From Minisyncoccia bacterium (GTDB lineage: Bacteria; Patescibacteriota; Minisyncoccia; SW-4-49-11): 64,000 nt of DNA. Below the pieces are notes generated by a model. It was not told the origin of the DNA, did not search any database, and worked only from the letters and a program-made list of their open reading frames with translations. Position 1 is the first letter of the stretch. Each line of letters begins with the position of its first letter. Location: contig JBIKWJ010000004.1 of assembly GCA_044356325.1 (NCBI GenBank), forward strand, positions 402 through 64,401. Direction: 5' to 3'. A program made the position numbers and the translations under genes. Of the stretch, positions 1,768 through 61,720 are shown one piece after another.

Positions 1768-2970
1768 TTATTCGCTTAAACGATATGGTAGATGAATATC
1801 TGTAGGAATATTAGCAATATGTATAAGGCCAATAATATCAATGTAACGAGCATTATCTATTTTACTGGTCATATCAATAATGTGGGGAAATTGTTGTGGC
1901 GTAAGAATTGATATACCTGGTTTAATAAGAGAATTGACTGATTTATGCCAGTTACTGTATTCCAAAGCCTCTTTAATACCTAATAATTGTGCACCCTCTC
2001 CATATAATAGTATATGAGGAGGGAGATTTTCTAATTGAGCTTCCTGTAAACTCAAAATAATTCCTTGTAACCAAAGAGATATTTCTGGCTCAAGAGCATC
2101 AGTGATACGGCGAGACATATCTCTTGGTAATTGTAGACGACTATATTCTTGACGTACTATTTCAGCTTCATCAATAGTAATTTGAAATGCATTTGCAATA
2201 GCTTGAGTAAAACTATGACTTCCCATACTAAAGGATTGTATATAATTAATTTTTTGATTCTGAATAGTACTAATAGTGGTATGACCAAATCGGATATCTA
2301 CTAATATTACTGATATATCTTTATTACTATTATAATCTAATATAAGTTGACCTACGGCATATCCATGTTGATATACTCCTTCAATAGATAGTTCTATACT
2401 TTTTTCTATATTAATCAATGATTGTTTATAGGCAATAGGAATATAGGTGTTGAGGGTCTCTAGAGTTATCGTATGAGCTTTTTCTCCAATTGGTGATAAA
2501 GTCTCCTCCCCATCTAAACGAATATCATTGAGAGAAATCTGCGCCAAAGATAAAGGGAGTTTATGACCCAACGAAGTGACATAAGGCTCCTCATCAAATT
2601 GAACATATATATCATCAATAGTATTAATCCACTCTTTTGAATTAATACTTTTTCGTGGTTTTTCACGATTTATCTCAACAATACGATCTTTCATTTCTAC
2701 TAATGGTCCTGACACTCCCAATATCATACCTGTTTTATCTTCATCAGTATTGGCTTTAGATTCAAGGCAAGCATTTTCTATCGCTTGTATTAATAGTGTT
2801 TCTTGTTCAATAGCGTTAGTATTAACAACCCCAAAGGGTAATTGAGTTTGTCCAATACCTTGAATCAAGGTATTGCCAGTCTTAATATCAACAGTATAAT
2901 CAACCACAGTAACTCTATTCTCAGAGATATCTATAATAAGAGGTTCAGATGATACTTTTTTACCAAACAT
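1768..2970 (-). CDS. Actin-fold ATPase of the PilM/FtsA family
   Basis: 400 aa. It has the N-terminal sugar-kinase/actin-like fold pattern and the segment ILVDIRFGHTTISTI...SFSMGSHSFTQAIANAF typical of FtsA/PilM. No ftsZ follows; a bitopic membrane protein is the downstream neighbour instead. Confidence 0.5.
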   Translation of the reverse strand: MFGKKVSSEPLIIDISENRVTVVDYTVDIKTGNTLIQGIGQTQLPFGVVNTNAIEQETLLIQAIENACLESKANTDEDKTGMILGVSGPLVEMKDRIVEINREKPRKSINSKEWINTIDDIYVQFDEEPYVTSLGHKLPLSLAQISLNDIRLDGEETLSPIGEKAHTITLETLNTYIPIAYKQSLINIEKSIELSIEGVYQHGYAVGQLILDYNSNKDISVILVDIRFGHTTISTIQNQKINYIQSFSMGSHSFTQAIANAFQITIDEAEIVRQEYSRLQLPRDMSRRITDALEPEISLWLQGIILSLQEAQLENLPPHILLYGEGAQLLGIKEALEYSNWHKSVNSLIKPGISILTPQQFPHIIDMTSKIDNARYIDIIGLIHIANIPTDIHLPYRLSE

Positions 2971-2983
2971 CGTATTATATTAT

Positions 2984-3592
2984 TTATTTTGGATAGTATA
3001 ATAATATTAGCCAAATAATTTGTCCTATAAATCCTACTCCTAGGGGAATTGCCAAATTATCATCAAGTTTAGAGGCGAAGGTTTCAATAATCACTCCACT
3101 TATAGCTAATATAAGTGGAGTAATACCAAATCCCCATATACTACCTGCTATTACAAAGTTAGCAATTAAAGCTAATAATATACCCTCCCAAGTTGTTTTG
3201 TTTTCTGTATTCGGGAATACCTTCATTGTACCATAAATTCCTCCAATTGTAGAAAATGTATCCCCAATAATTGCAATTAATATTGCTGTGATTGAGACTA
3301 TTGGCTCAAAAAGGGCTGTAGTTACAATAGCTGCCAAAACTAAATTTAATCCATCAACATTAGTATGTTGCTCTTTTGGCTTTACAAGACTCGCAAATGG
3401 CACCCAAATACGCGTATCCAGACGTAAATATTCATATACCAGAAATCCTACTACAAATACAGCTAAAAATCCTCTGGCATATAGCTCTGCATTCGTAAAA
3501 GTTTGGACGGATATATACCAATACAACGCAAAAGGAAGTATAAGTGCTAAATGGAGAGATTTACGAAGTAATATATCTCTTTTTGTTTTCAT
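2984..3592 (-). CDS. Polytopic membrane protein of the polyprenol (dolichol/phytol) kinase / CTP-transferase family
   Basis: 202 aa with several TM segments. Motif IGDTFSTIGGIYGTMKV....NKTTWEG matches the GD..A..(I/V)GG..G..K....NKT.EG signature of dolichol/phytol kinases. Confidence 0.45.
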   Translation of the reverse strand: MKTKRDILLRKSLHLALILPFALYWYISVQTFTNAELYARGFLAVFVVGFLVYEYLRLDTRIWVPFASLVKPKEQHTNVDGLNLVLAAIVTTALFEPIVSITAILIAIIGDTFSTIGGIYGTMKVFPNTENKTTWEGILLALIANFVIAGSIWGFGITPLILAISGVIIETFASKLDDNLAIPLGVGFIGQIIWLILLYYPK

Positions 3593-7014: not shown

Positions 7015-8481
7015 ATGAAAACATCTCTTATTGTATATTGGGCTCGGCGAGATTTAAGACTAACCGATAATCCTGCATTATATCACTCTATTAATACCGC
7101 AAAAGAACGAAATATATCTTTTGCTCCTATTTTTATATTAGAAAATTATATGCTTGAGGCTAAACCTCAAGCTCAATTTGGCTATGCCCAAAGACATATA
7201 TTAAGCCAAGCTTTACCCGAGTTTATACAGCAATTTCCTCAATTTCATTTGATTAAAGGCAAGGGTGCTCAGTCAATTATTGACCTGAGTAAATCTTATC
7301 AAATTGAACTCTATGTCAATCATGATATATATCCTGATTTCACTAAGCAATTGCAAAAAATTAAAGAAGCTGGTATCAATATACATATTTATGCAGATAG
7401 ACTGAGCGTTGATACAGATACTCGCAGTCAAAATGGAAATTTGTATTCTGTATTTACCCCTTTCAAAAAATCTATTTGGCAAGAATTCTTAAATACCGAA
7501 ACTTATCCGAAGCCCGACCTAAATTCTATATCATATCAAGATATTATCTCAGATTGGAATTATATACAGGCTAACACTGACGCCATACAACAAGAATTTT
7601 CCTCCAATAGAGATATCTTAATTGAAGATAGAGTATATGATTTAACTCAATATATTCCTCTTCCCGATTTATCTCTATGGTATTATTCTGAGGCTGAGGC
7701 TTTAGCATTATTCAAACATTTCCTTGATTCTGGCTTTCTTGATAATTATCATCTTAATAGAGATTCCCTGGAACTCGATACTATTGATAATGGTAAAACT
7801 TCAAAAATGAGTTTAGCTCTTGCTTGGGGATTTGTCTCAAGTAGAGCTCTTAGGCAAATGATACAAAAACATAGTAATAATACTCTTGAATCAGCTCTGA
7901 TAGATAACCAATATCCTGGAGCTACTATATATATATCCGAGCTTATTTGGAGAGAATTTTATGCCTATTTATTATATCATCAACCTAAATTACTCAATAC
8001 CGAATTTCAATTGCAATTCCGGGATACTATTGATTGGACTTCAGGAGAAAAGGCTCATAAAAGATTTCTTGCTTGGATTAAAGGAGATACCGGCTATCCC
8101 ATTGTCGATGCTGCCATGAGGCAATTAGCTCAAACAGGATGGATGCATAATCGATCCCGTATGATTGTAGCAAGTATATTAACCAAACATCTTGGAATTG
8201 ATTGGCGATGGGGACAAGAATATTTTCAGGCTACTCTTGTAGATTTAGATGAACCCTCTAATAATGGAGGTTGGCAATGGGGAGCTTCTGTAGGAGCTGA
8301 TCCTAAGCCGATTCGTATATTTAACCCTTATCTTCAGGCGAAAAATTATGATACAAAAGGAATATATCAGTCAAAATGGCTTGGAGAAAGCTATATTCCC
8401 CCACTTACACCTATTATTGAGCATAGTAAGGCAAGAGAACAAGCAATATTACGTTATAAGCAAGCTAAGTTCAAACTATAA
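7015..8481 (+). CDS. phr: Deoxyribodipyrimidine photolyase / cryptochrome family
   Basis: N-terminal YWARRDLRLTDNPAL and FAD-binding region TGYPIVDAAMRQLAQTGWMHNRSRMIVASIL ... NNGGWQW. Confidence 0.9.
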   Translation: MKTSLIVYWARRDLRLTDNPALYHSINTAKERNISFAPIFILENYMLEAKPQAQFGYAQRHILSQALPEFIQQFPQFHLIKGKGAQSIIDLSKSYQIELYVNHDIYPDFTKQLQKIKEAGINIHIYADRLSVDTDTRSQNGNLYSVFTPFKKSIWQEFLNTETYPKPDLNSISYQDIISDWNYIQANTDAIQQEFSSNRDILIEDRVYDLTQYIPLPDLSLWYYSEAEALALFKHFLDSGFLDNYHLNRDSLELDTIDNGKTSKMSLALAWGFVSSRALRQMIQKHSNNTLESALIDNQYPGATIYISELIWREFYAYLLYHQPKLLNTEFQLQFRDTIDWTSGEKAHKRFLAWIKGDTGYPIVDAAMRQLAQTGWMHNRSRMIVASILTKHLGIDWRWGQEYFQATLVDLDEPSNNGGWQWGASVGADPKPIRIFNPYLQAKNYDTKGIYQSKWLGESYIPPLTPIIEHSKAREQAILRYKQAKFKL

Positions 8482-8517
8482 TAGGAAAGTATTTAGTTTT
8501 CTATTATAGACTGATTT

Positions 8518-10386
8518 TTATTCCAATATTCCATCTGCATTATATTTTACAATATACATATCTGGACCAATGGAAGTAGTAAGTTCAGTTTGATTAGTAT
8601 CTCCATTCCCCAAAACAATAGTACCACCAAATTTTCCTACAGAAACAAGACTACCATCTACACTAGCAGAGATATCATTTCCATAATCATCACCAGTTCC
8701 ACCAGCTCTCTTTGCCCAAGCCAAACTTCCATCTGCATTATATTTTGCAGTAATTATATCATATCCTCCTGCACTTGTCAGAGGTACCGCGGATCCATCT
8801 ATTGTTAGAGTATTTTGGAAAAATCCAGTTAATATCACAGACCCATCTGATAAAGCAGCAGATCCCTGAAAAATATCAAAACCACTCCCTCCAATTTTTT
8901 TTACCCAAGCTAAACTTCCATTTGTATTATATTTTGCAACATAACCCTCAGCTACACCCAAATTTGATAATATTGTTTGATTTGACTCTCCTGGTGCAAA
9001 AGTAATCTGTTGACCCCAACCACCTGCCCAACCAGTAATGATACTACTTCCATCACTAAACCCAGTCATACTACTCACAGCATCATATCCATTTCCACCA
9101 GCTCTCTTTGCCCAAGCCAAACTTCCATCTGCATTATATTTTGCTATGAATATAGTATAATTTCCTGTACCTGTATTTAAAGTAGTAGCATTAGGATCCC
9201 CTACGCCAAAGGTTGTATTACTAGCAAAGAAACCTCCTACCATAAAGCTATTGTCAGCAAATGTATGTATTGCTCTTCCTCCTTGATCATGTACACCTTT
9301 TACATCCTTCGCCCAAACCAAGCTTCCATTTGCTGCATATTTTGCAATAAATATATCTGGTCTATCTAAACAGGTTGGTAAACAATCACGACTAGTAAAA
9401 GAAATTTGATTAGATTCACCCTGCCCAAATGTTGCGGTACCAGAGAACATCCCTGTAATAATACTAGTACCGTCAGTAAATGCTCCTAGCCCATAAGCAG
9501 AATCACTTCCATTAAATGTTCCCGCACCTCCGGCTCTTTTTGCCCACATTAATGTTCCATCTACATTGTATTTAGCTAGATAAATATCTTCAAGCCCAGC
9601 ACTCGTTAAATTAACAGCTCCTGTTTCTCCAGGACCAAATGTTATAGTATTTTTAAACCCCCCTGCAACTACAAAAGTACCATCCGCAAAGCTTTTAATC
9701 CGTGTTTCACCTACTATAGGTATATTACCACTAGTTCCACCAGCTCTCTTTGCCCAAACCAAGCTTCCATTTGCATTATATTTAGCAATAGCAAGTTCTG
9801 CAGATCCCGCACTTGTTAAACTAACAGCAACTGTTTCCCCAGCCCCAAATACCGCCGTCCCAGTAAAAGGTCCTGCTACGATACTGCTCCCATCTGATAA
9901 AGCAACTACTGAGTTAGTTCTACCAGTTGTTTCTGTAACAGTTGCTTTTTTTGCCCAGGTAATACTTAGAGCAAAAGAATTTATACCTATAACTTTTCCT
10001 AACTCACCAGTTAATACTTTAAGACTTATTTGTCCATTAGTTGGGTTTAATGCTATCTGATAATTGTCTCCCAAGGGATCTTTCGGTATTGCAGCTATAT
10101 AATCTGGGGCTAATGCACTTAAATTAACGCAATTAGTGGTTACTCCTACTGGACAAATATCTTTATATGATGTTGTAATACCGGTTGGATATGATCGATT
10201 TGTAACAAAATAATTCTCTAATGCTTGATTGATTTTAGTAATATCATCTAATCTAACGGTATTACGAGCTGATTGTAATTGTCTAGCAGGGTTAATTGCA
10301 ACTAATACAATGGAAGCTAATATACCTATTAAAGCTACTACTAATAGTATTTCTAATAAGGTGAAACCTTTTTTTTGTTTTTTCAT
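8518..10386 (-). CDS. Large type IV pilin-like protein: class III prepilin signal fused to about eight SBBP-type beta-propeller repeats
   Basis: N-terminus MKKQKKGFTLLEILLVVALIGILASIVLVAINP (G-F cleavage site, Glu at +5). The repeat (A)KYNADGSLAWAKRAGG(T/N)G is reiterated about eight times, with matching DNA-level internal repeats. Confidence 0.75.
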   Translation of the reverse strand: MKKQKKGFTLLEILLVVALIGILASIVLVAINPARQLQSARNTVRLDDITKINQALENYFVTNRSYPTGITTSYKDICPVGVTTNCVNLSALAPDYIAAIPKDPLGDNYQIALNPTNGQISLKVLTGELGKVIGINSFALSITWAKKATVTETTGRTNSVVALSDGSSIVAGPFTGTAVFGAGETVAVSLTSAGSAELAIAKYNANGSLVWAKRAGGTSGNIPIVGETRIKSFADGTFVVAGGFKNTITFGPGETGAVNLTSAGLEDIYLAKYNVDGTLMWAKRAGGAGTFNGSDSAYGLGAFTDGTSIITGMFSGTATFGQGESNQISFTSRDCLPTCLDRPDIFIAKYAANGSLVWAKDVKGVHDQGGRAIHTFADNSFMVGGFFASNTTFGVGDPNATTLNTGTGNYTIFIAKYNADGSLAWAKRAGGNGYDAVSSMTGFSDGSSIITGWAGGWGQQITFAPGESNQTILSNLGVAEGYVAKYNTNGSLAWVKKIGGSGFDIFQGSAALSDGSVILTGFFQNTLTIDGSAVPLTSAGGYDIITAKYNADGSLAWAKRAGGTGDDYGNDISASVDGSLVSVGKFGGTIVLGNGDTNQTELTTSIGPDMYIVKYNADGILE

Positions 10387-10479
10387 ATATTTTAAGTGTA
10401 TTTTTTAGATTTTATACTAAATTTAGTATATCATATTCTATGTTTTTGTCTACGATGTATCTCATCTTAGTCATATTTA

Positions 10480-10911
10480 TCAAAATTTACCCGTACTCCC
10501 GAAACCACCTTCGCCACGAGATGAATCAATTAATGTATCAGTAAATTCAATATCACAATATTCCACTTCCTGTACTACTAACTGAGCACATTTTGCTCCT
10601 TTTTCTATTATTTGTATTGTATGAGATAGATTAATCAAAGATATTTTTATTTCTCCTATATAACCAGCATCAAAAACTCCTCCTAGACTTTTGAGCCCCT
10701 TATTAAAAGCAAGGCTCGACTTATCCCAAACCAAAGCTGCATATCCTACAGGTAAATTCATAGCAAGACCAGTCGGAATAATTTTCTGCTCCCCTGGTTG
10801 AAATACTATTTCTTCAAGAGTATACAAATCCATACCAGCATCTGTGGAGTGACCATAGCTTGGTAATTTTGCATCAGGGTTAAGTTGTTTGAATTGTAAT
10901 TTCATATACAC
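10480..10911 (-). CDS. dut: dUTP diphosphatase
   Basis: Motifs GYSTDAGMDLY, DAGYIGEI and SSRGEGGFGSTG. Confidence 0.9.
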   Translation of the reverse strand: MYMKLQFKQLNPDAKLPSYGHSTDAGMDLYTLEEIVFQPGEQKIIPTGLAMNLPVGYAALVWDKSSLAFNKGLKSLGGVFDAGYIGEIKISLINLSHTIQIIEKGAKCAQLVVQEVEYCDIEFTDTLIDSSRGEGGFGSTGKF

Positions 10912-11383: not shown

Positions 11384-12109
11384 ATGGATAATTTAATTCA
11401 TGAAATAGTTCTCAAAAGTCAAGAATTGGACCCAAAATTACAATCTCAATTCATTGATTTAGAGAATGCCATTATATCTCTTCCTGATAAATCTAAAAGT
11501 GTATCTATCTTAGATACCATTCATCAAATTCAGGCTATTAACCCGAAACTAACTATTATCCCCTACTATTCCCTCAGATTCCATCAAGCAAAAACTCTCG
11601 ATGAGACAGCGCAAGAATTTTTATCCTTATTAGAGCAATTAATACCTTTGCATATACCTAAAATATTACTTATTAGTGGGGTACCAAAATCAAAATATAC
11701 CACTCTTGATGTATTGTCATTTATACAAACCCATTATCAGGATACATATCCTCGTATTGCTATTGCCTATAATCCATTCCTCTCGGGTGAAGAATTAGAG
11801 CAAGAAAACAATCTCCTTATGAATAAAATTAAAACTGGACTTATATCTAGCGTATATTTACAAATCGGTATAGATATACCGACTATACAAAAGGCTGTCG
11901 CATTCATACAATCCTTACAAGCAGATATTACGATATATATTAGCCTTATGAATCCTACGCCCCTTCGCTTAGCTCAATTCAAATATCGCCCTTGGAAAGG
12001 GGTGATGGTATCTCAAGAATATTTAGCCTCTTCTCAAAGAGCACAAGAAATAAATCAAAGTTTATATCAGCTAGCTAAAGAGCTCAATATTGGAGTTATT
12101 CAAGGCTAA
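11384..12109 (+). CDS. Hypothetical protein, possibly a TIM-barrel enzyme. Start trimmed to the first ATG after the EVE gene stop.
   Basis: The six-frame ORF 11330..12109 overlaps the EVE gene. The ATG at 11384 gives MDNLIHEIV with no overlap. Confidence 0.4.
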   Translation: MDNLIHEIVLKSQELDPKLQSQFIDLENAIISLPDKSKSVSILDTIHQIQAINPKLTIIPYYSLRFHQAKTLDETAQEFLSLLEQLIPLHIPKILLISGVPKSKYTTLDVLSFIQTHYQDTYPRIAIAYNPFLSGEELEQENNLLMNKIKTGLISSVYLQIGIDIPTIQKAVAFIQSLQADITIYISLMNPTPLRLAQFKYRPWKGVMVSQEYLASSQRAQEINQSLYQLAKELNIGVIQG

Positions 12110-20516: not shown

Positions 20517-20669
20517 TCGCAAATGGGATTTGCTCTTTGAAACCCCTCGGTTTCAATACTTCCGCCACAGGAAACTTCCGTTTCCCGACCCCTTCCCTAG
20601 TTCGAATTTCTCTTTACTAACTTATGGAAATTAAAAAATAGGAGTATACCCCTATTTTTTAGATTATTG

Positions 20670-20756
20670 CGGAGAGTAAGAGATTCGAACTCTTGATACC
20701 TTTCGGTATACACGCTTTCCAAGCGTGCGCACTAGACCAACTATGCGAACTCTCCA
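20670..20756 (-). tRNA. tRNA-Ser (anticodon GGA)
   Basis: The reverse complement folds as a cloverleaf. Acceptor stem is GGAGAGT/ACTCTCC. The D-arm has conserved GG. Anticodon stem CACGC/GCGTG carries loop TTGGAAA. There is a long variable arm (ATACC-GAAA-GGTAT) and a T-arm AAGAG-TTCGAAT-CTCTT. Discriminator is G; CCA is not encoded. Confidence 0.85.
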
Positions 20757-20773
20757 TTATCTTGATTATTTTA

Positions 20774-20800
20774 TCAGATATTTACTGTATTGACTAGAGT
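20774..20800 (+). repeat. 27-bp perfect direct repeat, copy 1 (tcagatatttactgtattgactagagt)
   Basis: Identical to 23278-23304. It lies 18 bp from the tRNA-Ser 5' end and contains a TTGACT -35-like hexamer. Confidence 0.8.
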
Positions 20801-20863
20801 AGAGATTAAATAATTATACTATTGTAAAATTAAGTTAGTTAAAAAGTTATCTAGAATTAATAT

Positions 20864-33918: not shown

Positions 33919-34833
33919 TCAAACCAAGGCTGAGATAATATATTGTGTGATGAGGAAAGCCCCCATAATTATCATAAGTCCCACCACTGCATTCCTAATT
34001 CCATCTAAAGCCTGACCTACTTCTCCTGGATTAGAACTTGTCATATATTTAAAACCTGACATTACCAGTATTGCAACGGTAATAGCACCTAATATTCCTA
34101 ATAAAGCATTAATAATACCCGCTATAAGATCTGGAATACTATTGAACTTAATAGGATTAGTGAATCCTACACTTTGAGGCGCTGATGAGTCAGTAGTTCC
34201 TCCCCCACCAGTAGATCCAGGAGTAGCAGTACTTGCAGTACAAGTTGGTTTACCACCTTGAGTAGCACAAACTTGCCCAGAGGTACAAGTCTTTCCATCA
34301 CATTTACCATTAACACTTGCATCTTTTGTACAAGTAGGCTTACCTCCCTGAGTGGCACATACTTGCCCAGAAGTACAGGTCTTTCCATCACAAGTATCAG
34401 CCGTTGAACCTCCTGAGGTTGATCCACCAGGACTACCTGGTGGTTTTTTACTAATGTCACATGGTCCTGTTTTAGGCCCTGGAGCTCTACATACACCTAA
34501 TTCACCACCAGATTTACAAGCATCTCCAATTATAACACAATCTTCCCACCCATTCTTCTCAGAATCAAGTGTTTTACAAGTCAATGGATTATTTTTTGCT
34601 ACACTATCTGCATTTGTCCTATCACAAAAACCACTTTCAGTCTGCGTTGCAGTTCCTGCAGATTGCCCTCTTCCTCCAGTAGTTACTTCTCTTTGATAGG
34701 TACAATCATCTCCATTTTTTTTACCAGAACATGCGGTATTTTGTGGAGAACTCTGAGCAAAGCTATTCTGAGGGATAATTAATCCTATACCTAATAAAAG
34801 TGAGAATAAAATATATTTCATACTAATTTGCAT
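33919..34833 (-). CDS. Secreted Cys-rich protein with two 30-aa tandem repeats and a C-terminal VirB2/TrbC-like pilin hairpin (array member 7)
   Basis: Signal peptide present. Repeat CDGKTCTSGQVCATQGGKPTCT appears twice. C-terminus LIAGIINALLGILGAITVAILVMSGFKYMTSSNPGEVGQALDGIRNAVVGLMIIMGAFLITQYI is the shared paralogous hairpin. Confidence 0.6.
   Translation of the reverse strand: MQISMKYILFSLLLGIGLIIPQNSFAQSSPQNTACSGKKNGDDCTYQREVTTGGRGQSAGTATQTESGFCDRTNADSVAKNNPLTCKTLDSEKNGWEDCVIIGDACKSGGELGVCRAPGPKTGPCDISKKPPGSPGGSTSGGSTADTCDGKTCTSGQVCATQGGKPTCTKDASVNGKCDGKTCTSGQVCATQGGKPTCTASTATPGSTGGGGTTDSSAPQSVGFTNPIKFNSIPDLIAGIINALLGILGAITVAILVMSGFKYMTSSNPGEVGQALDGIRNAVVGLMIIMGAFLITQYIISALV
34238..34395. 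repeat. Tandem in-frame DNA repeat, 2 x ~90 bp (63-bp near-identical cores)
   Basis: acaagt(t/a)gg(t/c)ttacc(a/t)cc(t/c)tgagt(a/g)gcaca(a/t)acttgcccaga(g/a)gtaca(a/g)gtctttccatcaca appears at 34240 and 34330. Confidence 0.8.
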
Positions 34834-36479: not shown

Positions 36480-37151
36480 TTAAGCGCCAGCAGCAAGTAA
36501 ACCACTAGTTACAAAATTAGTAATGAGGAATGCCCCCATAATAATAAGCAATCCAATCACGGCATTGGTAATAGCTCCTGTAGCAGCTGCTGTTTGGCTA
36601 GCATTTCCAGAGGACGTCATATAAAGATATCCTTGTAATACAATGATTATAAAAAATACAGTTCCAAGAAGCCCTAATATCCAGCGTATAATATTAGCGA
36701 CATATCCTATGAGAGTTCCTCCTGTATTAAGTCCTGATCCAGCATTTCTGAATTGATTTAACCCCTGAGACAGTCCATTTGATTCACTATTAATATTATT
36801 ACCGCCAGTTGTAGGTGTTCCATTTGGAGAGTTTGGTGTATTTGGATTTTGCTTAGCATCTGCTGCAGGTTTTAATGTATTGGCTTTAGGTACAGGAGCA
36901 CATACAATTTCCTTTGCTTGATTTTGAATACATGCTTGTCCAGAGCTACATTTAACAGTAGAGTCTCCTCGGCAATCTCCATTACTTTCTGCCTGATTTT
37001 CCAAACATTTTGTAGCACCATCTACTGTTACACAGACAAAATCTCCCGTACAGTTAGGACCAGTGCCACAAGCAGCTAAAGCATTATCTGCCCCCCCCAT
37101 AAATCCGATTGCAAATAGAATTGCTAAACTTGTTGATAAAATAAATCTCAT
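36480..37151 (-). CDS. Secreted Cys-rich protein with a C-terminal VirB2/TrbC-like hairpin (array member 3)
   Basis: Signal peptide. Cys module CGTGPNCTGDFVCVTVDGATKC...CRGDSTVKCSSGQACIQNQAKEIVC. C-terminus IRWILGLLGTVFFIIIVLQGYLYMTSSGNASQTAAATGAITNAVIGLLIIMGAFLITNFV. Confidence 0.55.
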   Translation of the reverse strand: MRFILSTSLAILFAIGFMGGADNALAACGTGPNCTGDFVCVTVDGATKCLENQAESNGDCRGDSTVKCSSGQACIQNQAKEIVCAPVPKANTLKPAADAKQNPNTPNSPNGTPTTGGNNINSESNGLSQGLNQFRNAGSGLNTGGTLIGYVANIIRWILGLLGTVFFIIIVLQGYLYMTSSGNASQTAAATGAITNAVIGLLIIMGAFLITNFVTSGLLAAGA

Positions 37152-37181: not shown

Positions 37182-37904
37182 TCATCTTTTTCTTAATTTC
37201 CAAATAAATAACCCAAGCCCCCCAGCAAGAAATAGTATTCCTCCTATTAAAATAGCTATATTTCCGGATGTTTTAGATTGTTCTGGATCTGAATTTGTAT
37301 CAGTATTAGGGGTAGGAGTATTGGTAGATAATAGTATAGTTCCTGCCTCATCTCGAATAACTCCATTTTCTTTTTGAAGGGTTTTCTGAGTTTCCTCTGA
37401 TAATGTAATATCTGGACCAAGACAATCTGCTATACAGGTATTATTATTCTCCCCTTTTTCATATTCACAGACATTATTTTGATTGCAAGTACTGTCCTTG
37501 GTTACATCTATATTCAATACTTTTCCATTTTGACTCTTGATATTAATAGCCTTAACATGAGGGAAATAAGGAATATTTATCACAAAAGTACCTTCTTTAT
37601 AGGGATATATTAGAGTTTGAGGAAAAGTGTATTGATAAGCCTCTAAATTTACCTGGAAATTATTATCTACAGGAAGAGCTGCTCTATCGTAAATACTTAA
37701 AGTATCATCAGTATCCTGTACCTGTATTGGCTCTGAGACAAATTTATCTAGACGAATTTCATCAGTAGCTTTGTCATAAAATAAAGATACTTGATAACTT
37801 TTGGCAGTACTAATCAATGGGAGGAATAGTAGGGTTAAGAATATGGTGTAAAAAGAGAATTTCATAGTATTGATATTATTGTTTACAAGCCCCTGTTTGC
37901 TCAT
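37182..37904 (-). CDS. Secreted protein with a small Cys module and a C-terminal TM anchor (array member 2). Start is ambiguous; 37865 is the alternative.
   Basis: Signal peptide MKFSFYTIFLTLLFLPLISTA, module DSTCNQNNVCEYEKGENNNTCIADC, and C-terminal anchor ILIGGILFLAGGLGLFIWKLRKR. It lacks the pilin hairpin. Confidence 0.5.
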   Translation of the reverse strand: MSKQGLVNNNINTMKFSFYTIFLTLLFLPLISTAKSYQVSLFYDKATDEIRLDKFVSEPIQVQDTDDTLSIYDRAALPVDNNFQVNLEAYQYTFPQTLIYPYKEGTFVINIPYFPHVKAINIKSQNGKVLNIDVTKDSTCNQNNVCEYEKGENNNTCIADCLGPDITLSEETQKTLQKENGVIRDEAGTILLSTNTPTPNTDTNSDPEQSKTSGNIAILIGGILFLAGGLGLFIWKLRKR

Positions 37905-39375
37905 CAGCTAACATTTTAGCGCAGGTTTCTGCAAATGGATATGCTCTAGTTTTATCATTTTGTTGTTCACAACCCACAATACTTGCCCACTGACATCTAT
38001 AAGAGCTGTTCCTAAATGATTGACAGTCAGTAATTCCGTTCTTTTTCAAAGTAGCAGCAACTGCTGCATCTTGATATTGTGGAGCCATATTATAATACGC
38101 AAATGTACCCTCTTTGATAGTATAAGTACCTGGTTTAACTGTGGGGACGCCCGCTACGGCTGCCCAAGAAGCCCAAGTAGTTGACAACATCTGAAATCTA
38201 CCATAAGCATCACTGTTAAGTCCGGTAGTATTGTATAGATTAGGATTTTCTGCTCCTGGATGTATATTTTGAGATTGAGGATACATTTTTCCACCTACTA
38301 ATCTAAAATAGCCCGACCTATCAGAGGCTCCTTCATAAAAAGATATAGTTCGCATTACGGCAGATATATTATCATCTAAATTAGTTGCGTCTACACAAGC
38401 AACACTTAATGATCCAACATTACCACTACCTCCACCTGTGGTTGCCGCGCCTCCTCCATTTGAGCCATTATCATTAAAAGTGCTCGCAGTGTCACATTTT
38501 ACTTCGAATATTTTACCTGATTGAAAAGTGAATACTGCTGAGAAATTTTGTTCTTGGAAACCAAGCCCTACGAGGAGAAAACTAAATAAGAGAAAACTTG
38601 ACATTACGAGTAATAGACCAATTACCGCATTAGTAATAATGCTATATCCTGTACTTACCCCCCCAGGATTACCGGCTGAGGTAAGTATATATACTCCACC
38701 AATTACAATACTTAATACTGCCAGTGAAGCGAGTAGACCCAAAGCTAAATTAAAGATGTCTCGAATTAAGATAAATATATCACAAATAGTACAGTCTCTA
38801 CTGGTACCACATTTAACAAGTCCTGTTTCTGAATTGGTTGAGCTTCCATTAGTTGTTCCACCACCAGTATTGACTAGTCCAGGAGTATTAGAACCAGTTG
38901 AACCCCCAGAGGTACCGACTTGGTTGCCTCCTCCACCAGCATTAGATCCAGATGGTGAATTAGTGGTACCACCAATAGTTGCATTTTCTTTTATACATTT
39001 AAAGTTACTACATTTAAGACCTGCTACACATTCATTTCCATTCCCAGAACAAGACTGTCCTTCTGTTTTATTTCCTCTTGGGCTGGAACAAACTTGATTA
39101 ATACAAGCCAATCCATTTTGACAGGTATCTCCGGAGCAAGATGATCCTAAACTTCTACGACAAGTTAACCCTAATCCTAGATTATTTTTATCTTTAACTT
39201 GGCATTTTCCATTTAAACGAGAAATCCCATTTTGAAATGTACAATTTTGCTCTAATGCTGTTGCCCTAGCACTACAGGCTCCATCAGCTGTCTGAGCATA
39301 AGTAGATTTAATACTAAAAAATGAAGCTATTAAAAAGATTATACTAAAGACTATACCAAACTTTATATATTTCAT
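37876..39375 (-). CDS. Tripartite secreted protein (array member 1): Cys-rich N-domain, central VirB2/TrbC-like hairpin, and C-terminal phage-lambda-type lysozyme/lytic transglycosylase domain
   Basis: Signal peptide, then Cys modules (CSGDTCQNGLACINQVC, CSGNGNECVAGLKCSNFKC) and a Gly/Thr-rich linker. Hairpin is IRDIFNLALGLLASLAVLSIVIGGVYILTSAGNPGGVSTGYSIITNAVIGLLLVMSSFLLF. The C-terminal ISFYEGASDRSGYFRLVGGKMYP...AYGRFQMLSTTWASW aligns with lambda R lysozyme (LAWSEGTD...YDVIVGG...AGRYQLLSRWWDAY), including the catalytic Glu. Confidence 0.65.
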   Translation of the reverse strand: MKYIKFGIVFSIIFLIASFFSIKSTYAQTADGACSARATALEQNCTFQNGISRLNGKCQVKDKNNLGLGLTCRRSLGSSCSGDTCQNGLACINQVCSSPRGNKTEGQSCSGNGNECVAGLKCSNFKCIKENATIGGTTNSPSGSNAGGGGNQVGTSGGSTGSNTPGLVNTGGGTTNGSSTNSETGLVKCGTSRDCTICDIFILIRDIFNLALGLLASLAVLSIVIGGVYILTSAGNPGGVSTGYSIITNAVIGLLLVMSSFLLFSFLLVGLGFQEQNFSAVFTFQSGKIFEVKCDTASTFNDNGSNGGGAATTGGGSGNVGSLSVACVDATNLDDNISAVMRTISFYEGASDRSGYFRLVGGKMYPQSQNIHPGAENPNLYNTTGLNSDAYGRFQMLSTTWASWAAVAGVPTVKPGTYTIKEGTFAYYNMAPQYQDAAVAATLKKNGITDCQSFRNSSYRCQWASIVGCEQQNDKTRAYPFAETCAKMLADEQTGACKQ

Positions 39376-55875: not shown

Positions 55876-58800
55876 TTATTTGTTAAGTACTTGTCGCACA
55901 GCTTCTTTAATTCCTATCATCTTACTTGGTTGCAAGAATGTGGATAGAGGTTGTATTATATTGTTAGTATTCGGAAGTTTGACTGGCTTCCAAAATCCAG
56001 AGGTTGGTATTTTACTATCAGAACTAAACTCAGCCCAATTAAATATTTGGTTAAAATCTTCTGCTGACTTTATACCTTTAAAAGATAAATATTCTCGGAA
56101 TAGTTGAACATTCTGATTGTTTGGATTAGGGTTGCTTACAATAGCATCGTATAGCCAGTTTTTACCTGCATCAGTTTGTACATAAGTATCTAATACCTGC
56201 TTACCTAAATTAGAGTCATAAGGCAAGTTCCCTAATTCATTAGCGATATATCTCTGCACTACACCTAAAGAGTTTGTTCCTTTAGTTAATTCCACCATAT
56301 CTGGAGCATCTTCAAATCTAGCTAAAATAGTCTGATTCAAAACGTTTCTTAATTCATCAGAGTTTATGTTATTAACTACTTCAGACATTTGCTCTGGACT
56401 TAAGTTAGCAAAGTCAGTAAGACTATTAACTCCAAATCCATTAGATAAAAATGTAGATCCTTCACCTATATTGATTATAGAGTTATAGATTACTTCTCTT
56501 CCATAATCATCTGTAAAATATGATTGTATAATTTCTTTAGCTTGTAAATCTGTAAGATTTTGCTTACCTAATATTTCAGATAAATCTCTAGTAAATTTAC
56601 TAGTTGCAACTGGTGGAACTTCTGGAGCTAGAGTTGATACTGGAGCTTCGGCTGCTGGTGGAACTGTAGGCTCTGATCCTAAAGATTCAGTGCCTAATGG
56701 TGATGATGCTGGTGTTTCGGGATATCCTGGCTCAATAGTAGGAGATTCTGCTGGAGATGGAGCAACATATTCTGTCGGTTGGAATGCCTCAAGATGATCT
56801 ATGTTAAAATGACTAATTCCCTCTAATTGACCCGGACCTAGATATCTTGAAACTTCATATAATTGCTCTTTTGAAAGACTGGCCATTTCATTAGCATTAT
56901 CTATTCCCCATTGTGCTAATAATCCTCTTCCCCCTTCTGTACCTTGCGCTAATTGAAACATCGTATTCTGACCTACTCCCGACTGCACATAATTTTCTAG
57001 GGCATGCTGTATTTGGTCTGGACTAGCATTTGGCCCTAATTGTTTAGCTATTTCTCCCCATAAAGTCTCACCTTTACTTAATTGAGATATATCTTGTAAT
57101 TGTACAGAAGGATTATCAGGACTATCTATAATATCTGGTTTAGGAGTATTGGTAATCTGCTCTGGATTAAAAATTCCTCCTGGCCTCATCATATCAACTG
57201 CTAATGAGGTCATAAGGCCTCCACCCACTGCTGTTCCTACTACATTTGCAATAAGTCTATTCCTTTGTTGTTTTTGTAATTCTGTAATACGTTCTTTTGA
57301 TAAAGTAGTTAATAATCTACTTGTATATTGCTGATTATATTCTGGGGAAGAGAATATAAATTTCTCAGGTTGAGCTTTTACCTCACCTTCATCACTATTA
57401 CTATTCTCTGAATTTATGGTTTCACCCTCAATTTTATTAATATTAGTAAGAAGCTCTTCTTTTTCGGGCTGTTTTGCAATACTTTCACGCTGTACTCTTG
57501 TACCTAATTCATTTAATATGGCCTCATAAGCTGTTTGCTGTGATTCATTAGTAAATTTACCACCATTAAGGCGATAATAGGCCTCGAGTGTACTAAGCTT
57601 TGTACTAAGATCAACATCCTTTGCCTCCTTAATATATCCTTCTTGTAATGACTCCCCTACTAATTTTGGTATAGCTGCTTGAAAATTAATATTCAAACCA
57701 AATTTATTGATTTTAATACTCCCATCTTCAAAACCAGCACGAGCTAATTCTCGACTTGATACTCCAGACATAAGACTTGATACAGAACGCCTCAATACTG
57801 CGAGTCCTCCCGCAACAGGTAATCCAAATCCTGTTAATGCTAAGGTAGTTCCTACTCCAAAGGCTACCAAATTGAGTCTACTAATAAATTTTTTATGTTT
57901 AATAGCAAAATTGAAAAATCTTTCTTTTAGTGGATTTATTGCCTTCTCAAATCCAGATTGTAATTCTTGTGATTGTAATATTCTTTCTTCTCTCAAATTC
58001 TTAACCTCTTGTGTAAAGACTCTATGAATTTCTGACTCTAAACCTTGAGCTGACATAATACCAATAACTTCCTCAACTGTTTGATTATATTCTCCCCTTA
58101 GTCTTTCTAATTCTAGTTTTGCACTCTCATCATTACGATTTCTATTATACAATTCTTCAGCTCGGGCATAAGCTTTTCTCAAATTATCAAGTTGTGCTTT
58201 TGAGCTAGTTTCTAATTGCTCATCTTGTTTAGAAGTATCACCTATAGTTTCTGTAACCTGAACATTTGGTAATTCTTCAGCTGGGGTTAATTTAGGAGTT
58301 TTATCTATTGGGTATAAAGGAGATTCTTCTTCTGGATTTGGTAAAATATGCTCAATTGGAGTATCCGACGGATCTACAATTATAGGTTCTAAGAATTCCT
58401 TATCATTTAATACTCCTTCTATCCAATCTGGAGTATTTGGATTTAATCCTTCTATGATATAACCTAATTTTTTGTTTTCATTATTACTTGTATATATGAT
58501 ACGAACTGGTCTTGATTTAGCAAAAATCTCCTCAAAAGTCCTTGGGCGATTTAGTTCAACTTCATTACCCTCATTATCAACAATATGTGTAATATTACCT
58601 TCAGTGTTAAGTTTAATAGTCCCTGTACTTACAAGAGAATTTTTAGCATCTGATATGTTAATTAAATCTCTATGTGCTATTAATATATCTCTTAGTTGTG
58701 GTAATTTCCGAGAGAGATGTCCATCAAGTTTATGTGATAATTTTTCCACTTTATCCCAAGCATCTGTTTCTAATTGTCTATAAACATTTTGAACAGATTC

Positions 58801-59889
58801 AGTTCTAAGATTTGGTGCATGTGTGTCACCAAATTCTTTATACTTTTGTATAGCTTCACGTGCTTCTTGTTTTAATAGTTCAATTTCTGCACTATTATCA
58901 AGGGTTTCTAATTCTCCTTCACCAGGATATATTTTACCCTCTATTCTAGCTAATGCACCTCCCGTTTCTCGTTCAACAATACTATCAACTACACCATTTA
59001 ATTCTTCCTGTAATGATTCTTCTCCAGGTAATTTATCAAGTAGTATTTCTGTCTCTACATCTAATCCGGAAGGACTTGTTTCAGATGGAGGTGTATTATC
59101 ATCTTGAAAATACGGATACCTATTTAGTATTTCATTTAATTCAGGATCAATAACTCTTTTATCTATAGATTTACCACTTGCTGAATGAGTTAACTCCTCT
59201 ACTGACCCTCCCCCCTGTTGAGAATCTGGCTCTTCTTCTATTTGAGGTTCTTCTGAATTTAAGGGTTCAAGACCAATTTTTTCTCTCCAAATATTAATAT
59301 TCTTTGGAGTTAATTCATTATTTTGCAATTCTGCTGGAATTAAACCTTCTTCTTGGACTATTCTTCTGAGGTCAAATCTTGCCTGATTACCTTTCTTTCC
59401 TTCAGGAATACCGAGTAATGTTGCAAAGGTTGGGATTATAGATCGTGAAAGTTCATACTTTATTTCGTTATCTGATAATTCAAGAATCCCATCCTTTATC
59501 CTACCCGATTGAGTCCATGTTATTTGATGTAGGGTAGATTCTTTTGATTCATTGCCTTCTTCTGGATCAGGAGATTCTACAGAAGGGACATATTCTGATA
59601 ATCCATATGCCAGCCGAATAGTATTTATCATATACAAATATACCCCTGATATATTTCCTTCTCTTTTCAAATCTAATGCTTCTTGATAATGTGGAAATTG
59701 CTCTAAAACTGGCACAACGCCCTTAGATGTAATAGCATCGATCAGTTGTAGTTTTTCTGTTTTTGTAAGCTGAAGCCAACCTGGTAATTCTCCCCCATGT
59801 TTTTTATGTGCTTTTGAAGCTTCACGAGTTACAAAAGGCATAGATGATTCTTGTTCCACGAATCTAAGTTGTTCTGGTGATCTTCCCAT
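55876..59889 (-). CDS. Giant (1337-aa) acidic hypothetical protein with central TM helices, coiled-coil and Pro/Glu-rich segments
   Basis: Uninterrupted 4-kb ORF. TM candidates are FGVGTTLALTGFGLPVAGGLAVL and LIANVVGTAVGGGLMTSLAV. No recognisable catalytic motifs. Confidence 0.6.
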   Translation of the reverse strand: MGRSPEQLRFVEQESSMPFVTREASKAHKKHGGELPGWLQLTKTEKLQLIDAITSKGVVPVLEQFPHYQEALDLKREGNISGVYLYMINTIRLAYGLSEYVPSVESPDPEEGNESKESTLHQITWTQSGRIKDGILELSDNEIKYELSRSIIPTFATLLGIPEGKKGNQARFDLRRIVQEEGLIPAELQNNELTPKNINIWREKIGLEPLNSEEPQIEEEPDSQQGGGSVEELTHSASGKSIDKRVIDPELNEILNRYPYFQDDNTPPSETSPSGLDVETEILLDKLPGEESLQEELNGVVDSIVERETGGALARIEGKIYPGEGELETLDNSAEIELLKQEAREAIQKYKEFGDTHAPNLRTESVQNVYRQLETDAWDKVEKLSHKLDGHLSRKLPQLRDILIAHRDLINISDAKNSLVSTGTIKLNTEGNITHIVDNEGNEVELNRPRTFEEIFAKSRPVRIIYTSNNENKKLGYIIEGLNPNTPDWIEGVLNDKEFLEPIIVDPSDTPIEHILPNPEEESPLYPIDKTPKLTPAEELPNVQVTETIGDTSKQDEQLETSSKAQLDNLRKAYARAEELYNRNRNDESAKLELERLRGEYNQTVEEVIGIMSAQGLESEIHRVFTQEVKNLREERILQSQELQSGFEKAINPLKERFFNFAIKHKKFISRLNLVAFGVGTTLALTGFGLPVAGGLAVLRRSVSSLMSGVSSRELARAGFEDGSIKINKFGLNINFQAAIPKLVGESLQEGYIKEAKDVDLSTKLSTLEAYYRLNGGKFTNESQQTAYEAILNELGTRVQRESIAKQPEKEELLTNINKIEGETINSENSNSDEGEVKAQPEKFIFSSPEYNQQYTSRLLTTLSKERITELQKQQRNRLIANVVGTAVGGGLMTSLAVDMMRPGGIFNPEQITNTPKPDIIDSPDNPSVQLQDISQLSKGETLWGEIAKQLGPNASPDQIQHALENYVQSGVGQNTMFQLAQGTEGGRGLLAQWGIDNANEMASLSKEQLYEVSRYLGPGQLEGISHFNIDHLEAFQPTEYVAPSPAESPTIEPGYPETPASSPLGTESLGSEPTVPPAAEAPVSTLAPEVPPVATSKFTRDLSEILGKQNLTDLQAKEIIQSYFTDDYGREVIYNSIINIGEGSTFLSNGFGVNSLTDFANLSPEQMSEVVNNINSDELRNVLNQTILARFEDAPDMVELTKGTNSLGVVQRYIANELGNLPYDSNLGKQVLDTYVQTDAGKNWLYDAIVSNPNPNNQNVQLFREYLSFKGIKSAEDFNQIFNWAEFSSDSKIPTSGFWKPVKLPNTNNIIQPLSTFLQPSKMIGIKEAVRQVLNK

Positions 59890-61387: not shown

Positions 61388-61720
61388 ATTATCCAAGAAG
61401 AATATAAGCTGGATTCTGTTATATATATTTGCAAGCAATTATATATAGGTAATCATTTATCTTGATATACTGTTACCAGTATATTCTTGGCGGCACTCTT
61501 TTCAATACAGAAAAGCACGGCCTTGCACCTGATAGGGTTTATCTCTTTTCACCTTAGATGAGATACACTCAAATGTCTTGTTTCTGCGATACTATCCCGA
61601 TTGAGCAAGCTCAATGATGGGTATTACCCACTATCATTTATTACAAAGTAATAGGTGTCCAGACTTTCCTCACTCACCATATTATGGATATGCGCGATTA
61701 CCATTCTCCTTGGATACTCT
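61388..61720 (-). ncRNA. rnpB: RNase P RNA (bacterial type A-like)
   Basis: The reverse complement contains GAGGAAAGUCUGGAC (P4 5' strand with bulged U) and ACAGAAUCCAGCUUAUA (P4 3' strand, exactly complementary to AAG-CUGGA). It also has UAAGGUGAAAAG and a P1 helix GUAUCCAAGGAGAAU / AUUCUUCUUGGAUA. A TATAAT -10 sits just upstream on the minus strand. Confidence 0.75.

Follow-up and report, generated by a model that had tools for sequence, protein, structure and literature searches.

The gene considered here lies on the minus strand of a window of 64,000 nucleotides (nt; the whole stretch of DNA that was analysed, taken from contig JBIKWJ010000004.1 of a Minisyncoccia bacterium), between the genes for a dUTPase (dut) and a photolyase, and it encodes a protein of 622 amino acids (aa) in which a class III prepilin signal and a small pilin module are followed by a seven-bladed DUF5122/delta-60 beta-propeller. 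Sequence comparison indicates that this design is conserved as a family in genomes of the candidate phyla radiation (CPR). In our view its product is probably a modular type IV pilin from a bacterium of the CPR/Patescibacteria type, with the propeller acting as a ligand-binding head on a minor or tip subunit that attaches the cell to a host or to another surface. Its fast evolution and the occurrence of alleles with and without the propeller also make the gene a candidate for determining host contact in CPR bacteria that have not been cultured. The positions of all features are collected in Table 1.

The N-terminus carries every element of a type IV pilin signal (basic leader, Gly, Phe or Met at +1, Glu at +5): it reads MKKQKKG followed by FTLLEILLVVALIGILASIVLVAINP, that is, a basic leader of seven residues ending in Gly, with Phe at +1, Glu at +5 and then a hydrophobic helix. 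An earlier note, made from the DNA letters alone, had called this a canonical class III prepilin signal, and this was borne out by matches above the cut-offs to Pfam N_methyl (29.2 bits, cut-off 21.2) and NCBIfam TIGR02532 (29.4 bits, cut-off 16.3). Residues G7, F8, T9, L10, L11 and E12 are invariant across alignment A1, which comprises 19 full-length homologs and also served as input for an AlphaFold2 model and for a profile search of the Protein Data Bank (PDB). A protein identical to the window product (P0001), encoded on a JGI metagenome contig of 70.7 kb, carries the JGI/NCBI annotation prepilin-type protein.

The 'lollipop' form of pilins (hydrophobic alpha-1N, an alpha-1 helix of ~50 residues and a small beta head) is found both in the model and in the sequence matches. 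In the AlphaFold2 model of the whole protein (mean predicted local distance difference test score, pLDDT, 84.7; predicted template modelling score, pTM, 0.77), helices span aa 10-30 and 33-63 and strands of the head lie at aa 75-77, 109-113 and 120-124, with pLDDT in these parts mostly 70-93. The alpha-1 helix would be the filament-assembly interface. When the A1 profile was compared with PDB sequences, the N-terminal module matched GspG (5wda), geopilin, PilA and PilE1 chains, and Pfam T2SSG covers aa 36-123 at 22 bits, just above its cut-off of 21. Moreover, aa 1-141 align over ~95% of their length, at 40-71% identity, with stand-alone pilins of 138-215 aa, several of which are annotated as PilA and of which the named ones come from Patescibacteria metagenome-assembled genomes (MAGs). 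Because of this nearly full-length alignment, aa 1-140 can be taken as a complete small pilin module, more than a signal alone.

The protein as a whole has the layout of a modular pilin, namely a complete pilin, a short linker and then a domain that also occurs outside pilins; propellers like that of aa 141-622 are found elsewhere with type IX secretion system (T9SS) or PKD domains or without partner domains. At the junction of the two modules (aa 121-140) the pLDDT of the model falls to 71-73. Fusions could not be counted by a search with the junction itself (aa 40-221), as most of its matches were short fragments.

In the C-terminal part, the motif [AV]KY[NA]xxGxL occurs in seven copies (at aa 201, 271, 348, 415, 484, 547 and 613, spaced 63-77 aa apart), as does a W-A-K half-motif, the first copy of which, at aa 144, has no KYN before it. 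Since blade 1 begins at ITWAKKA without a KYN strand, and since the seventh KYN copy makes up the final ten residues, the strand missing from blade 1 is most likely provided by the C-terminus, which would close the ring in the manner of a 'velcro' fastening. All members of A1 except P0083 have a C-terminal strand of this KYN type. Assignment of secondary structure to the model with DSSP gave seven strand repeat units, each of up to six strand segments, and a single strand at aa 609-615 at the end. The eight blades of the earlier note have therefore to be replaced by seven blades and a closing C-terminal strand, while the combination of pilin and propeller, for which the same note had proposed structure prediction as a check, is supported by the model.

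The closest solved relative of the propeller is CylK. The A1 profile matched it among PDB sequences at E 5.6e-32 over profile positions 251-577, which cover the propeller only, and a Foldseek search of the PDB with the model also placed it at the top (E 3e-21; template modelling score 0.56, normalised to the 622-aa query; 490 columns). In CylK, the C-terminal domain forms a propeller of seven blades, and every junction between blades has a Ca2+ site (PMC8916777). The seven repeats, the model and this fold match together identify a multi-bladed propeller, which would be closed as described above.

With regard to family, the protein belongs to Pfam DUF5122 (PF17164; 40.2 bits, cut-off 27). It scores below threshold (52.1 against 76.5) for NCBIfam TIGR02608, the delta-60 repeat, and we take InterPro entry IPR013431 to be an entry for the delta-60 repeat as well. 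Pfam SBBP (PF06739) gave no match at E<=1 in the 622-aa protein, and membership in the LipL53-family SBBP lipoproteins (NF047494) is contradicted both by the score (57.3 bits against a cut-off of 400) and by the N-terminus, which is a prepilin signal and not a lipobox. The repeat had been described earlier as of SBBP type, which holds at the level of the Pfam clan; at the level of the family the protein is a DUF5122 member. This superfamily is very large (203,693 clusters at E<=1e-3 in an exhaustive profile search), almost no ligands of DUF5122/delta-60/SBBP proteins are known, and a literature search on these three names found no functional study. Any ligand found for the window propeller would therefore inform many such proteins. 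A search of the model against the viral structures of BFVD gave top matches at E 1e-20 to 5e-30 to collagen-triple-helix proteins of giant viruses (Indivirus, Klosneuvirus, Fadolivirus and pithoviruses) and to cyanophage structural proteins; the recurrence of this type of propeller on viral fibrous appendages would fit a ligand-binding role at the end of a fibre, if only as an analogy.

Among the best 120 database matches, about 19 have the architecture of pilin and DUF5122 propeller, with lengths of 600-650 aa, the others being propeller proteins with other partners (T9SS sorting domains, PKD) or with none; in the exhaustive profile search, pilin fusions make up six representative clusters among the top 150. 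Among GTDB species representatives, full-length copies are found in MAGs labelled Candidatus Paceibacterota or Saccharibacteria, and the propeller without the pilin is common in Bacteroidota and other phyla. There are at least 19 relatives of full length, and all those with named genomes come from CPR MAGs, in which the genes are usually solitary among housekeeping genes. An ortholog in L002 (627 aa, 75% identity) shows the same dut/photolyase synteny. Another conserved locus, lying between GAPDH and mnmA, also carries a full-length fusion, and this locus is occupied by a fusion in GCA_964585065.1 too, a genome with two paralogs on different contigs.

The pilin-propeller gene is the fastest-evolving gene in its neighbourhood. 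Its 75% amino-acid identity to the L002 ortholog compares with 86-96% for eight neighbouring genes, and the ratio of non-synonymous to synonymous substitution rates (dN/dS, by the Nei-Gojobori method, window against L002, gene-wide values) reaches 0.69 in the propeller and 0.32 in the pilin module, as against 0.06-0.23 in nine neighbouring genes. As dS is comparable between the gene and its neighbours, the excess divergence is non-synonymous. Such divergence is in keeping with a protein exposed at the surface, on which selection is either diversifying or relaxed; a gene-wide value does not discriminate between the two.

The propeller has also been lost in a close relative. In the same SelR-EVE-dut-[pilin]-photolyase synteny, with flanking genes of 94-98% nucleotide identity to the window, P0126 (L094 2223-2639 / L095 539-955) is a pilin of 138 aa, the module of which is 71% identical in amino acids to that of the window and which breaks off precisely where the pilin module ends, with ...INPF before two stop codons. 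Aligned to the window with BLASTN, L094 is 91% identical as far as position 9973, and the match picks up again at 8468. L094 and L095 were counted as one observation, as they share an identical 109-nt junction and are possibly from the same sample. A duplicate of the last 24 nt of the module, found after the stop codons in L094 and considered as a recombination scar, was set aside because at 87.5% identity it is too weak to interpret. Another relative (P0127, L092/L093 10001-10642) encodes a pilin module with exactly one propeller repeat, 213 aa in all and ending ...AKYNSDGELE, directly downstream of the full-length fusion between GAPDH and mnmA. A lone blade cannot form a propeller, and this protein may be a recombination product or may oligomerise.

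Within the gene, the longest exact internal repeat is 52 nt, whereas in 100 codon shuffles the longest averaged 11.4 nt and never exceeded 15, and a 51-nt repeat family has seven copies of 69-88% identity. Tandem Repeats Finder reported nothing in 8400-10500, because apart from the one 52-nt block the repeats are too diverged in their DNA. Blade number is seven in four strain-level alleles (95-98% identity, 622-624 aa) and in the L002 ortholog. It is thus stable at short range, yet loss of the whole module has happened. The suggestion of the earlier note that the gene is recombination-prone is supported in so far as there is a long exact repeat and there are relatives with no blade or one blade, and is not supported by the alleles and the ortholog that keep seven; the comparison of repeat copy number across strains that the note proposed revealed no variation.

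As regards the surroundings of the gene, dut lies upstream on the same strand across a 93-nt spacer, and 36 nt downstream comes the photolyase gene, in convergent orientation. Within the spacer are a promoter-like site, a candidate only because shuffled sequence would be expected to give at least as many such sites as the region has, and a perfect palindrome, possibly an operator, that is kept only in part in L094. That the gene stands alone between dut and photolyase, as had been noted before, is essentially right, and the fusion genes of relatives are likewise solitary; the statement has two qualifiers, an ambiguous gene of the FtsA/PilM family 5.5 kb away and a second prepilin gene at the contig end. 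The absence of adjacent pil genes was equally confirmed: Pfam scans of 30 other open reading frames (ORFs) of the window gave no pilB, pilC, pilD or pilT, nor did any appear in the ~6 kb by which the contig continues past the window, where response regulator, enolase, FtsK and HIT genes are located. Peptidase_A24 did not turn up either, in the window or in the part of the contig visible outside it. A six-frame motif scan of the 64-kb window for prepilin signals returned only the 622-aa pilin gene.

The second prepilin gene (MQRAKRVKKGFTLLE..., MQRAKRVKKGFTLLEILLVIAA...) starts at the extreme end of the contig (L001 20723-20790), ~400 nt past window position 1, downstream of the FtsA/PilM-like gene and of genes for proteins of 519 and 149 aa. 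The assemblies of three related populations (L001, L096 at 20723-20836 and L092 at 11945-12055) all break inside the 5' end of a pilin gene, which suggests that there are several pilin genes with near-identical N-termini per genome. The actin-like ATPase at 1768-2970 (-) matches Pfam PilM_2 (39.6 bits, cut-off 27) and, far below the cut-offs in both cases, NCBIfam ftsA (44.6) and pilM (38.4); it was not counted as a pil gene, since NCBIfam cannot separate FtsA from PilM. Upstream of it lies a gene for a 202-aa multi-pass membrane protein (2984-3592, -), and downstream one for a 519-aa protein with a single transmembrane segment and a weak Baseplate_J match (202-1761, -). These three genes may or may not be a pilus-alignment module.

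Taken together, the following course of events appears probable to us. Prepilin peptidase (PilD) would cut after Gly7, the hydrophobic alpha-1 helix would first hold the protein in the membrane, and the same helix would then place it in a type IV pilus made chiefly of small (~140-aa) pilins encoded elsewhere in the genome. Since the subunit is bulky, it would be of low abundance and probably located at or near the pilus tip, where the propeller would be the effector, a ligand-binding head attaching the cell to the envelope of a host cell or to another surface. Rapid non-synonymous change and loss in a close relative would fit a surface-exposed determinant of specificity under changing selection. 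Type IV pilus genes are well conserved across Patescibacteria according to a published survey (PMC11623550).

Several observations weigh against this interpretation. The processing and assembly of the 622-aa pilin are assumed, and the contig of 70.7 kb shows no prepilin peptidase, assembly ATPase or platform protein. The gene lies outside any pilin operon, whereas most characterised minor pilins are encoded in one, and the position as a minor or tip subunit is suggested by analogy with such pilins; a rough geometric estimate of our own would also allow a filament carrying a propeller on every subunit by way of a flexible linker. No ligand of the propeller is indicated by the analysis. The gene-wide dN/dS of 0.69 could mean relaxed constraint rather than positive selection, and the propeller-less allele P0126 may be decaying rather than functional, because Ala replaces Gly at -1 (KKKKKA/FTLLE).

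The class III signal might alternatively do no more than export the protein and anchor it in the membrane, or build it into a short stub of pseudopilus, with the propeller being a surface receptor or binding protein away from any long pilus. Archaeal surface proteins with pilin-type signals are the comparison case. Such an anchor would agree with a gene that is solitary among housekeeping genes, here and in relatives, with pilus machinery not seen nearby and with a head resembling the pseudopilin GspG. However, Glu at +5 and the whole of alpha-1N are invariant in the 19 homologs, a complete globular pilin head is kept beyond the helix alone, and Glu5 of pilins is important for assembly and not for cleavage, so that we consider this explanation unlikely.

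It is also quite unlikely, in our opinion, that the protein is the major (structural) pilin, which would put a propeller on each filament subunit and give a thick, propeller-coated pilus. The module is indeed very near to stand-alone PilA-like pilins, the same locus of a relative encodes a plain small pilin, the gene has its own promoter-like site, and our rough packing estimate does not forbid it. Nevertheless, the modular pilins characterised so far are minor subunits (PMC8179133; PMC11623550), the second prepilin gene on the contig and the assembly breaks in pilin 5' ends imply several pilin genes, and a filament of 622-aa subunits would be costly for an organism with a reduced genome. We lean towards a minor or tip adhesin by analogy, because stand-alone CPR pilins are homologous to the module and because the characterised modular pilins are minor adhesive subunits.

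An enzymatic function of a pilus-borne propeller, be it alkylation as in CylK or some other catalysis (hydrolase, lyase), is very unlikely. The Friedel-Crafts alkylating enzymes CylK and BrtB (PDB 7fh6, 7ron) have a seven-bladed propeller of the same repeat type as aa 141-622, no solved structure comes closer to the propeller in sequence or fold than CylK, and peptidase-bearing modular pilins exist (PMC8179133). In contrast to the window protein, CylK is a cytoplasmic biosynthetic enzyme and not a pilin; its catalysis requires Arg105 from an N-terminal Ca2+-binding beta-roll, the active site being at the interface of the two domains (PMC8916777). This beta-roll is absent here, the N-terminal 140 aa being the pilin module, and for that reason the CylK-like reading was rejected. 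The window also offers no CylC-type halogenase or polyketide context, and a high dN/dS is atypical of an enzyme. Finally, a type II secretion pseudopilin (GspG/GspH-like) instead of a pilus subunit is improbable in the extreme: Pfam T2SSG lies just above its cut-off, but the partial matches to the GspG equivalog TIGR01710 (49.7 bits) and to GspH are far below the NCBIfam cut-offs of 88.85 and 80, there are no gsp genes in the window, and CPR cells, which are generally described as having no outer membrane, leave such a system no role.

Going beyond the favoured interpretation of a minor or tip adhesin, one may speculate that, at a fixed pilin locus of an environmental CPR episymbiont, the propeller serves as a cassette for host specificity. 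Recombination between internal repeats would remodel or remove it, seven-blade, one-blade and no-blade alleles would coexist in close relatives, and switching between them would change the host or surface to which the cell can attach. We regard this as a long shot. If true, it would represent variation of a pilus adhesin at the level of modules, unlike the point and cassette variation of Neisseria pilE.

A life in attachment to other microbes is assumed for CPR/Patescibacteria, and of the devices that could serve it, type IV pili are one of the few with experimental support (PMC11623550, PMC9894109). Being conserved and fast-evolving, the pilin-propeller family offers a tangible candidate for the host-contacting part of the pilus in uncultured lineages from the environment, and natural alleles with and without the propeller at a single locus provide a ready-made comparison.

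With regard to the rest of the window, three proteins with C-terminal PF18895 T4SS_pilin domains are encoded at 33919-34833 (-), 36480-37151 (-) and 37876-39375 (-), the largest being Cys- and Gly-rich; this is a gene cluster of the kind tied to the type IV secretion system of Patescibacteria. In combination with a GC content of ~34%, an AlaRS of 576 aa and the Patescibacteria names borne by those homologs that have one, these three proteins indicate a genome of the CPR/Patescibacteria type. An ORF of 1337 aa (55876-59889, -), located between glycosyltransferase and sugar-transferase genes, matched no Pfam family at E<=0.001. The only two structured RNAs found in the window are a class A bacterial RNase P RNA (61389-61713, -; 139.6 bits) and a tRNA-Ser(GGA) (20669-20755, -).

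Table 1. Features of the pilin-propeller gene and its upstream spacer, with positions in the 64,000-nt window.
Feature	Residues	Position	Strand	Basis or remark
Whole gene, 622-aa modular type IV pilin		8518..10386	-	ORF list; stop codon 8518-8520; ATG start
Class III leader MKKQKKG	1-7	10366..10386	-	Sequence reading; N_methyl/TIGR02532; cleavage predicted after Gly7
Mature N-terminus and alpha-1 helix	8-63	10198..10365	-	F+1, E+5, hydrophobic alpha-1N, amphipathic alpha-1C
Small globular GspG-like pilin head	64-140	9967..10197	-	Cys78 invariant, Cys86; boundary at ...GINSF
DUF5122/delta-60 beta-propeller, seven blades	141-622	8521..9966	-	Repeat anchors, DSSP, CylK matches
Blade 1	141-196	9799-9966	-	
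Blade 2	197-266	9589-9798	-	
Blade 3	267-343	9358-9588	-	
Blade 4	344-410	9157-9357	-	
Blade 5	411-479	8950-9156	-	
Blade 6	480-541	8764-8949	-	
Blade 7	542-608	8563-8763	-	
C-terminal strand MYIVKYNADGILE	609-622	8521..8562	-	Carries the seventh KYN motif (KYNADGILE)
52-nt exact direct repeat, copy 1	415-432 (codons)	9093..9144	-	Start of blade 5
52-nt exact direct repeat, copy 2	547-564 (codons)	8697..8748	-	Start of blade 7; 396 nt from copy 1; family D2
Segment missing from the L094/L095 locus: entire propeller and short 3' spacer		8469..9972	-	BLASTN, L094 vs window
Sigma-70-like promoter match TAGACA-16-TATACT, with TG		10425..10452	-	Consensus scan; in dut-pilin spacer
Perfect 18-nt palindrome TATACTAAATTTAGTATA		10413-10430		Shares bases with the -10 element of that promoter match; in dut-pilin spacer

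Among known systems, proteins that share the propeller superfamily without being pilins include the LipL53 lipoproteins of Leptospira and T9SS-sorted delta-60 proteins of Bacteroidota. Surface proteins with SBBP or delta-60 propellers are anchored by a lipobox, a T9SS C-terminal domain or PKD stalks, whereas the anchor of the window protein is a pilin. The PilY1/PilC proteins of diderm type IVa pili are likewise propellers for adhesion at the tip (PMC8179133, PMC11623550), a position that in our case would be an extrapolation. PilY1, however, is not a pilin and docks on minor pilins via a propeller of its own (IPR008707), while the window protein is itself a pilin and does not belong to this family (PF05567/IPR008707), no member of which was present among the Pfam and NCBIfam matches at E<=1 or among the 50 best fold matches in the PDB.

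Modular pilins occur widely, and PilB from Streptococcus sanguinis, a pilin with a von Willebrand factor A (vWA) module, is a bona fide adhesin (PMC8179133). The InterPro survey by Raynaud et al. (PNAS, 2021) found 1,219 such proteins in 264 architectures, many of them from CPR phyla, and its Dataset S1 lists IPR012902-IPR013431-IPR013431 (4 proteins) and IPR012902-IPR013431 (1 protein) (PMC8179133). The combination of a pilin motif with IPR013431 is therefore already catalogued, and the window protein extends this long list by another uncharacterised architecture. It shares with modular pilins the N-terminal class III signal, the small pilin module and the bulky C-terminal functional module; its effector is a seven-bladed DUF5122/delta-60 propeller and not a vWA or lectin domain, and its gene is solitary and not part of a pil operon.

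The closest functional analogue that has been tested is probably PilX2, a minor pilin of the T4P-2 pilus (type IV pilus) of Nanosynbacter lyticus TM7x (Saccharibacteria), which carries a heptabladed propeller of RCC1 repeats (PMC11623550). Deletion of PilX2 halved host binding while filament extrusion continued, and PilX2 has been proposed to be a tip adhesin (PMC11623550). The two propellers, of RCC1 repeats in the one case and of DUF5122/delta-60 repeats in the other, are likened here by description only; in addition, PilX2 has no predicted PilD signal and belongs to a locus of five pilins, whereas the window protein has a canonical G/FTLLE site and a solitary gene. Compared with these systems, what is new here is the fast evolution of the gene, its 52-nt exact repeat, the constant blade number in strains and the propeller-less relative at the same locus.

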